Positions 1 through 227 of a DNA stretch of 64,000 nt are shown here, one piece after another. Position 1 is the stretch's first letter, and every line of letters starts with the position of its first letter. Both the position numbers and the translations under genes were made by a program. The notes below the pieces were generated by a model, which did not search any database, was not told where the DNA came from, and was given only the letters and a program-made list of their open reading frames with translations. Origin of the DNA: Escherichia coli. Its GTDB lineage: Bacteria > Pseudomonadota > Gammaproteobacteria > Enterobacterales > Enterobacteriaceae. Where the stretch lies: NCBI RefSeq assembly GCF_003334405.1, contig NZ_QOWM01000004.1; one strand, 5' to 3'.

Positions 1-41
1 CCGAAGGGCGAGCGAAGCGAGTCATCCTGCACGACCCACCA
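1..41 (+). other. tRNA-Lys-like 3'-end remnant (acceptor 3' strand plus CCA, no canonical T-arm)
   Basis: Last ~17 nt (TCCTGCACGACCCACCA) match the 3' end of tRNA-Lys(UUU) as remembered; preceding bases lack a GTTCRANYC T-loop and 5-bp T-stem, so not an intact tRNA. Confidence 0.4.
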
Positions 42-45
42 ATGT

Positions 46-72
46 AAAAAAGCGCCCTAAAGGCGCTTTTTT
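46..72 (+). terminator. Rho-independent terminator
   Basis: GC hairpin AGCGCC-ctaa-GGCGCT followed by TTTTTT. Confidence 0.7.
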
Positions 73-227
73 GCTATTCAGGCATCCTCAATTTCACTTT
101 GTAAACCTGATGACATCGTCAGAGCTTACTGTGCAAGCAACTCTATGTCGGTGGAATTAGGCGTAAAATGACGCATCCTGCACATTAGGCGTAATTCGAG
201 TGACTTTTCCCCACCATTCGACTATCT

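Follow-up and report, generated by a model that had tools for sequence, protein, structure and literature searches.

Window 1–41 of the 64,000-nt stretch of Escherichia coli DNA analysed here (the whole stretch is referred to as the window) is, with a very high degree of confidence, the 3' end of a tRNA-linked repeat (TLR), the family listed in Rfam as RtT, and window 42–77 is a duplicate of the terminator of lysQ, the last gene of the lysT operon; this confidence extends to both the identity and the anatomy of the element. The feature is an already catalogued and annotated TLR: the odd look of the fragment comes from the window edge, which cuts through a named repeat. More generally, a partial tRNA 3' end beside a tRNA operon of Enterobacterales is usually a TLR/RtT unit rather than an integration scar.

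[quoted passage not shown] The first to be described was the 178 bp × 3.14 repeat at tyrT (Egan and Landy, 1978), and the repeats were later catalogued (Rudd, 1999; both cited in PMC8144298). Apart from the rrn copies RrA/B/F, no function is known for them, and a claim that linked rtT to the stringent response has been retracted (PMC8144298).

Identity of the Element at the Window Edge

The window opens in the order CCGAAGGGCGAGCGAAGCGAGTC-ATCCTGCACGACCCACCA-ATG-TAAAAAAGCGCCCTAAAGGCGCTTTTTTGCTAT, and its positions 1–3100 are identical to E. coli K-12 MG1655 (L001 2501–5600). The upstream K-12 bases complete an element of 126 nt (L001 2416–2541) that ends at window 41, with 85 nt outside the window (L001 2416–2500) and 41 nt inside. 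The RefSeq annotation places an RtT sRNA at these same coordinates, starting 30 nt after lysQ; in the K-12 reference record NC_000913.3 the unit carries no annotation. The region is present in all of the 5,426 complete E. coli genomes, and an RtT sRNA is annotated under the match.

The full-length RF00391 model matches L001 2416–2541 with 46.7 bits (E = 3.4e-8), which is marginal with respect to the gathering threshold of 45 bits. Four further matches, of 54–60 bits, fall in the long spacers after lysT, lysW, lysY and lysZ; the lysT operon holds five TLR units, the one at the window edge being the fifth, and five is the maximum per locus quoted for TLRs (PMC8144298). The Tyr-linked units of tyrT reach 133–138 bits with the same model. 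A scan of the window by itself is silent on the remainder of the element because only 41 nt of it lie inside. The outer helix of RF00391 and part of its inner helix are mismatched in the distal lysQ unit, and the core hairpin is kept. Since the score is marginal and the outer helix is unformed, the membership in the TLR family rests mainly on the alignment of the core and on the 3'-end hallmark. By the features that define a TLR, the unit directly follows the stable-RNA gene at the end of a tRNA operon, shares the 3' end of that gene and is related in its body to the other members.

Anatomy of the Unit and Its Terminator

The locus runs from lysQ through its terminator, a TLR body of 102 nt and an 18-nt copy of the tRNA-Lys 3' end to the same terminator again (Table 1). 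A perfect direct repeat of 54 bp (L001 2368–2421 and 2524–2577), with a spacing of 156 bp, is made up by the ends of lysQ and of the TLR; its first copy, which holds the end of lysQ and the lysQ terminator, lies outside the window and the second is window 24–77. The repeat runs for 36 bp past the tRNA and through the terminator, and the lysQ locus amounts to 1.35 copies of a tandem unit of 156 bp. The same module follows lysV, at the end of the valU operon, with 268 nt identical except for one base, and the similarity of the two modules ends right after the second terminator.

Table 1. Features at the beginning of the window, in window coordinates.
Feature	Position	Strand	Basis
End of the TLR body, last 23 nt, with the core ...CCGAAGGGCGAGCGAAGCGAGTC	1–23	+	Rfam RF00391; RefSeq RtT sRNA; core alignment with Tyr-, Lys- and Arg-linked units and rrnB RrB
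Copy of tRNA-Lys(UUU) 59–76: T-loop A59/U60, T-stem 3' strand, acceptor 3' strand, discriminator, CCA	24–41	+	18/18 identity; TLR hallmark (PMC8144298)
Second copy of the perfect 54-bp direct repeat: tRNA-Lys 3' end, ATG, terminator, GCTAT	24–77	+	Repeat search, 100% identical
AUG trailer after CCA, in the same context as the lysV RNase P site; putative cleavage site	42–44	+	Module sequence identity; PMC4176162
Intrinsic terminator hairpin: A-tract 46–51, GC core 52–66, loop CUAAA 57–61, U-tract 67–72	44–74	+	Fold; match to the lysQ/lysV terminators

A strong terminator had been noticed after the fragment in the initial annotation, and the folding of window 42–77 bears this out, giving a hairpin of 13 bp and −19.1 kcal/mol (z = −5.75, with 0/200 shuffles as good) followed by a U-tract; with the core GCGCC/GGCGC at 52–66, the 5-nt loop and the T6 run at 67–72, it is an intrinsic terminator. 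A simple terminator consensus scan did not call the hairpin at window 44–74, probably because the A6 and T6 runs lengthen the stem into the T tract. The sequence is that of the lysQ and lysV terminators, with a difference of one base in the first copy of lysV only, and the lysV terminator has been treated experimentally as a Rho-independent terminator (PMC4176162).

The body holds GCAGGTTTGA, which is the 5' half of the T-arm of tRNA-Lys with one mismatch, after an inverted copy of it, GATTCGAACCTGC, and the two together make up the dominant 5' hairpin of the predicted fold, in which the last 14 nt are single-stranded. The minimum-energy fold of the unit uses another 5' hairpin than the RF00391 consensus, and the full unit folds with z = −2.39 with respect to shuffles.

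No ORF longer than 44 aa is found between lysQ and nadA. An arginine-rich ORF of 28 aa with a TTG start runs through the core (L001 2461–2547, to window 47), and shares its frame with the ‘protamine-like’ Tpr annotated at tyrT (RRPEGR vs. QRPEGR); this resemblance probably just follows from the conservation of the core nucleotides. Decayed TLR copies were searched for in window 78–317 and none was found, the local alignment of the body scoring 14 against a shuffle mean of 14.7. The 10-mer at window 174–183 (CATCCTGCAC) is the same as the opening 10 nt of the junction plus tRNA-like end and is not conserved in ATCC 25922; as a candidate decayed unit it was rejected, given a spacer devoid of similarity to the TLR body and a different sequence in ATCC 25922, and the repetition is probably due to chance.

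Elsewhere in the window, gathering-level Rfam matches were obtained for a Moco riboswitch (35145–35289), two naRNA4 elements (24092–24162 and 55821–55891) and two ES036 elements (33839–33880 and 50543–50585).

A Core Shared by Units of Different Host Genes

As defined by the alignments, the TLR core is a hairpin followed by GGCCCGAAGGGCGA, a short GC-rich segment and CGAGT. This core is joined to the end of tRNA-Tyr in the four tyrT units, to the end of tRNA-Lys in the lysT and lysV units, to the end of tRNA-Arg in a Ser-Arg operon of Enterobacter and to the end of the 5S rRNA in rrnB. The alignment of the bodies, which comprises four Tyr-linked and four Lys-linked K-12 units, Arg- and Lys-linked units of Enterobacter and units of Photorhabdus, has 26 invariant columns. 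Pairing in the core hairpin amounts to 96% across 22 distinct units, and four of its eight pairs show compensatory changes, which come from few independent lineages, mainly Photorhabdus vs. E. coli; none of 500 shuffles reached the observed value and the slid controls were also far below it. That the core is conserved from genus to genus hints at some function, which the spacer explanation proposed below does not supply.

Several loci illustrate the range of hosts. The spacer between two tRNA-Arg(ACG) genes of Enterobacter cloacae (L041 3518–3678) holds the TLR core and the last 18–19 nt of tRNA-Arg, and this Arg-linked core is not reported by the Rfam RtT model at the gathering threshold. The spacer between T1 and T2 of K-12 rrnB (L129 330–420) encodes RrB, which shares the core AACGTTGC-GAAG-CAACGGCCCGGAGGG and whose body has the 5S-like GAGTAGGA at its start and the 5S terminus at its end. 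A scan of the genome collection for the 15-nt core GGCCCGAAGGGCGAG, a pattern that is too short, returned, among the matches listed, mostly chance occurrences in GC-rich genomes, and the usable loci were those of Enterobacter and Photorhabdus only.

Copy-Number Variation Among Strains and Genera

A query spanning the junction was covered by at least 80% in 2,511 of the 5,426 complete E. coli genomes, and the distal unit is precisely absent from about 54% of them. The TLR body occurs somewhere in 3,243 of the 5,426, with a median of two places, namely the loci of lysQ and lysV. In strains such as ATCC 25922, O55:H7 and BL21 the match to the window begins at base 24, directly under lysQ. A comparison of K-12 with ATCC 25922 reveals three units precisely missing, of 98, 99 and 156 nt, with the breakpoints within the repeats, and the remaining Lys-Lys spacers of ATCC 25922 are 48 and 33 nt long. 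Strain Z217-2 carries two distal units, 156 bp apart; Enterobacter cloacae has two units after a lysV-type gene, each with the terminator of E. coli; and the syntenic cpoB locus of Photorhabdus caribbeanensis carries, after two intact tRNA-Lys genes, a tandem array of 14 units plus a fifteenth that is truncated. The units of this array (L051 5238–7990) are about 175 bp long, and three of them reach the gathering score of the Rfam tRNA model, about 30 bits.

Copy numbers of 0, 1, 2 and 14 indicate that the repeats, or the modules of lysQ and lysV, undergo unequal homologous recombination or gene conversion with each other, and both a gain by duplication or conversion and a loss by deletion appear compatible with this pattern.

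Variation of the same kind of locus was observed at tyrT of E. coli SK1144 (L004), where there are no RtT units, tyrT and tyrV are 33 nt apart and desaturase-family genes occupy the downstream position of the K-12 rttR/tpr repeats. A full unit of 126 nt, with 97.6% identity, was found in plasmid NZ_CP098226.1 (20289–20413), a 50-kb E. coli record. Next to the lysQ locus, window 87–330 (L001 2587–2830) is 85% identical between K-12 and ATCC 25922, an unusual divergence for an intergenic region of E. coli, as compared with 98–100% in the adjoining tRNA and terminator DNA.

Origin of the Unit

The array of Photorhabdus is informative on how the E. coli unit may have arisen. Each of its units is a copy of tRNA-Lys, with two to five mismatches in 76 positions, that carries an insert of 64 nt between GGTTCGA and ATCCTGC, i.e., at T-loop positions 58/59. 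When this insert was removed in silico, all of the 11 units tested were recognized by ARAGORN as tRNA-Lys(UUU), and none of the 11 in native form. The acceptor pairs of several units are broken, from which it follows that the Photorhabdus units are pseudogenes rather than spliced genes. Because only the 5' half of the T-arm, the cassette and positions 59–76 are kept in E. coli, the distal unit looks like a further decayed derivative of such an interrupted tRNA-Lys copy. On the same comparative grounds, the TLR family in general may consist of partial gene copies interrupted by the same cassette, including the partial 5S copy in rrnB. This description was not found in the searchable literature, in which a single paper deals with TLRs and which excluded Rudd (1999) and Bösl and Kersten (1991), and it is not claimed as new.

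A more far-reaching idea is that the core of about 64 nt is a discrete insertion cassette targeted, by a mobile or RNA-templated mechanism, to the 3'-terminal segment of stable-RNA genes. The cassette lies 18–19 nt from the mature 3' end (T-loop 58/59) in the copies of tRNA-Lys, tRNA-Tyr and tRNA-Arg, including the 14 tRNA-Lys copies of Photorhabdus that are complete but for this insert; in rrnB, its distance to the end of the presumed partial 5S copy is about 13–18 nt. These data are fitted as well by a simple duplication followed by gene conversion and by selection for a usable 3' processing signal, and they do not separate the two possibilities; we consider targeted insertion improbable. 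If it were true, it would imply a targeting mechanism so far undescribed in Enterobacterales, of which the element in the window would be one decayed product. In either case, the Photorhabdus arrays, the occurrence of one core with ends of Lys, Tyr, Arg or 5S type and the polymorphism of 0, 1 or 2 copies sharpen the question of where TLRs come from.

Proposed Read-Through and Insulation of nadA

The primary transcript of the lysT operon is about 1100 nt long and that of valU about 438 nt (PMC4176162), and these lengths agree with a stop at the first terminator. RNase P cuts this terminator off between U and G, 3 nt after CCA, which has been shown for valU-lysV and is presumed for lysT because the lysT and lysV terminators are identical (PMC4176162). 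At rrnB, T1 stops about 87% of the transcripts and the TLR RNA derives from read-through; the 3' end of this RNA was mapped 3 nt beyond the repeated 18 bp, a position that the authors credit to the recognition of the repeat by RNase E (PMC8144298).

On these precedents, most lysT transcripts would end at the first terminator, and a minority would read through the lysQ terminator, take in the TLR and end at window 67–72. The TLR RNA would be trimmed to a tRNA-like 3' end by RNase P or RNase E, acting after CCA, and then by exonucleases; the same trimming enzymes are proposed since the CCA-AUG-hairpin context at the end of the TLR is that of lysQ and lysV. The second terminator, as the last barrier before the nadA promoter region, would shield nadA from the very strong tRNA promoter. 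Taken alone, these steps of read-through, processing and insulation appear moderately probable to us. The gene nadA starts at window 318, and upstream of it window 228–246 (TGTTTAGCATATAAAACA) looks like a TGTTTA inverted-repeat box, which we take to be a putative operator of NadR, the NAD repressor. The unit would likely serve as a read-through spacer RNA, with a back-up terminator at its end to insulate nadA. A trans-acting function is neither known nor required for the spacer explanation, and any function would be dispensable, since about half of the E. coli strains are devoid of the unit.

Alternative Explanations

The position of the 18-nt match at the very edge of the window is all that speaks for an intact tRNA-Lys gene clipped by that edge, or for a chance match, and neither possibility survives. 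The 18-mer ATCCTGCACGACCCACCA (window 24–41) equals positions 59–76 of tRNA-Lys(UUU) and occurs once in the 64-kb window, where 1.8e-6 occurrences are expected from the base composition, which rules out an origin by chance. The initial annotation, which recognized the acceptor 3' strand and CCA of tRNA-Lys before position 41 in about 17 nt, was right in this respect, the exact match being 18 nt, and also in considering it a fragment and no gene: ARAGORN found no tRNA in the window or between lysQ and nadA in the extended K-12 sequence, and at L001 2386–2600 both ARAGORN and the Rfam tRNA model are silent, with all of the seven upstream genes detected. The upstream sequence, known from K-12, forms no cloverleaf, so that the clipped gene envisaged there as the opposing case is gone, and upstream in K-12 lies the lysT operon, which ends in lysQ. 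Its statement that the upstream bases cannot form a T-arm is valid inside the window, where positions 1–23 have only chance-level similarity to tRNA-Lys; it does not extend outside, as the 5' half of a T-arm, with one mismatch (GCAGGTTTGA), lies 64 nt upstream of position 24. Of the two origins that it offered, tRNA-operon rearrangement is close to the truth. The other, a scar of integration or excision, supposes that a tRNA-targeting integrative element once resided at lysQ and that the 18-nt copy is its attR-side duplicate after decay. The block of identity does begin inside the T-loop and reach CCA, and strains differ in whether they have the unit; Williams in 2002 reportedly placed many of the crossover or identity segments that tyrosine integrases use in tRNA genes in the part from the T-loop to CCA. 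Against such a scar, there is no integrase and no ORF above the 44 aa already mentioned between lysQ and nadA, and the flanks are cpoB and nadA; just 102 bp separate the repeats, the repeat takes in the terminator and continues for 36 bp beyond the tRNA, and the body is that of a chromosomal family, RtT/TLR, with members in Tyr, Lys, Arg and 5S operons. A search of 50,697 phage records gave no meaningful match (the two matches of the body are partial, 40 nt long and in unannotated records of 1.6–2 kb), the plasmid matches are mostly to Mb-size records that look like mislabelled chromosomes, and tandem copy numbers of 0, 1, 2 and 14 fit unequal crossing-over and not the action of an integrase. 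With the element DNA absent and the copies varying in tandem, the integration scar was rejected as very improbable.

A different possibility is that a functional small RNA, of the kind of RrA/B/F in the rrn operons, is encoded by the unit. The architecture is that of 5S-T1-RrB-T2 in rrnB and the core is common to both, compensatory changes maintain the core hairpin in different genera, the fold of the full unit is better than those of shuffles at the z value given above, RtT RNAs have been detected, at varying levels, in Klebsiella transcriptomes (PMC4147364) and rttR is an annotated sRNA of K-12. This explanation sits uneasily with the presence/absence pattern among strains: about 54% of E. 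coli genomes do not have the distal unit and ATCC 25922 is without the inner ones too, which makes the units dispensable. Moreover, the sole phenotype reported for rtT has been retracted, TLRs have no known function and 19 TLRs of tRNA operons scored < 0.01 as CsrA binders (PMC8144298), and the major transcripts stop at the first terminator (PMC4176162). A functional small RNA is, on balance, unlikely, and a read-through spacer with a back-up terminator is the reading that we prefer.

Comparison With Known Systems

The attL/attR duplications generated at tRNA genes resemble the lysQ unit in the direct repeat of a tRNA 3' segment that starts from the T-loop and in the presence or absence among strains; in contrast to them, the lysQ unit has no integrase or element DNA, its repeats are 102 bp apart and include the terminator, and it varies in tandem. 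The likeness to 3'ETS-leuZ (cited in PMC8144298) would consist in a trailer RNA of a tRNA operon that is freed by the tRNA-processing machinery; 3'ETS-leuZ is located before the terminator and has a demonstrated sponge activity, whereas the lysQ unit comes after the first terminator.

Closer relatives are RrA, RrB and RrF, which lie between T1 and T2 of rrnA, rrnB and rrnD (PMC8144298) and have the same layout of a stable-RNA 3' end, a terminator, a body of about 100 nt, a repeat of the 3' end and a second terminator. The repeats are spaced by about 150 bp in the rrn TLRs vs. 156 bp at lysQ, and the cores are alike (AACGTTGC-loop-GCAACGGCCCG[A/G]AGGG). The host of the rrn TLRs is the 5S rRNA, and their T1 and T2 differ, whereas at lysQ the sequence of T2 repeats T1 exactly. 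In vitro, RrB binds both Hfq and CsrA, whereas the TLRs of tRNA operons are predicted not to bind CsrA (PMC8144298), and the rrn TLRs are reported to be conserved across Enterobacterales, unlike the lysQ unit, which is absent in about half of E. coli.

The Tyr-type TLRs (RF00391/rttR, at tyrT) are similar to the lysQ unit in their position after a tRNA gene, in the 18-nt identity of the 3' end and in the tandem layout of partial copies, and they have in common with it the core made of the hairpin, GGCCCGAAGGGCGA and CGAGT. The organization of tyrT, with 3.14 copies of 178 bp, compares with 1.35 copies of a 156-bp unit at the lysQ locus. The lysQ unit differs from them in having a Lys-type 3' end and in leaving the Tyr-type outer helix (GGGGAAGG/CCUUCCCC) unformed, its 5' part being instead a palindrome derived from the 5' half of the T-arm (GATTCGAACCTGC/GCAGGTTTGA), and its repeat unit contains a full terminator.
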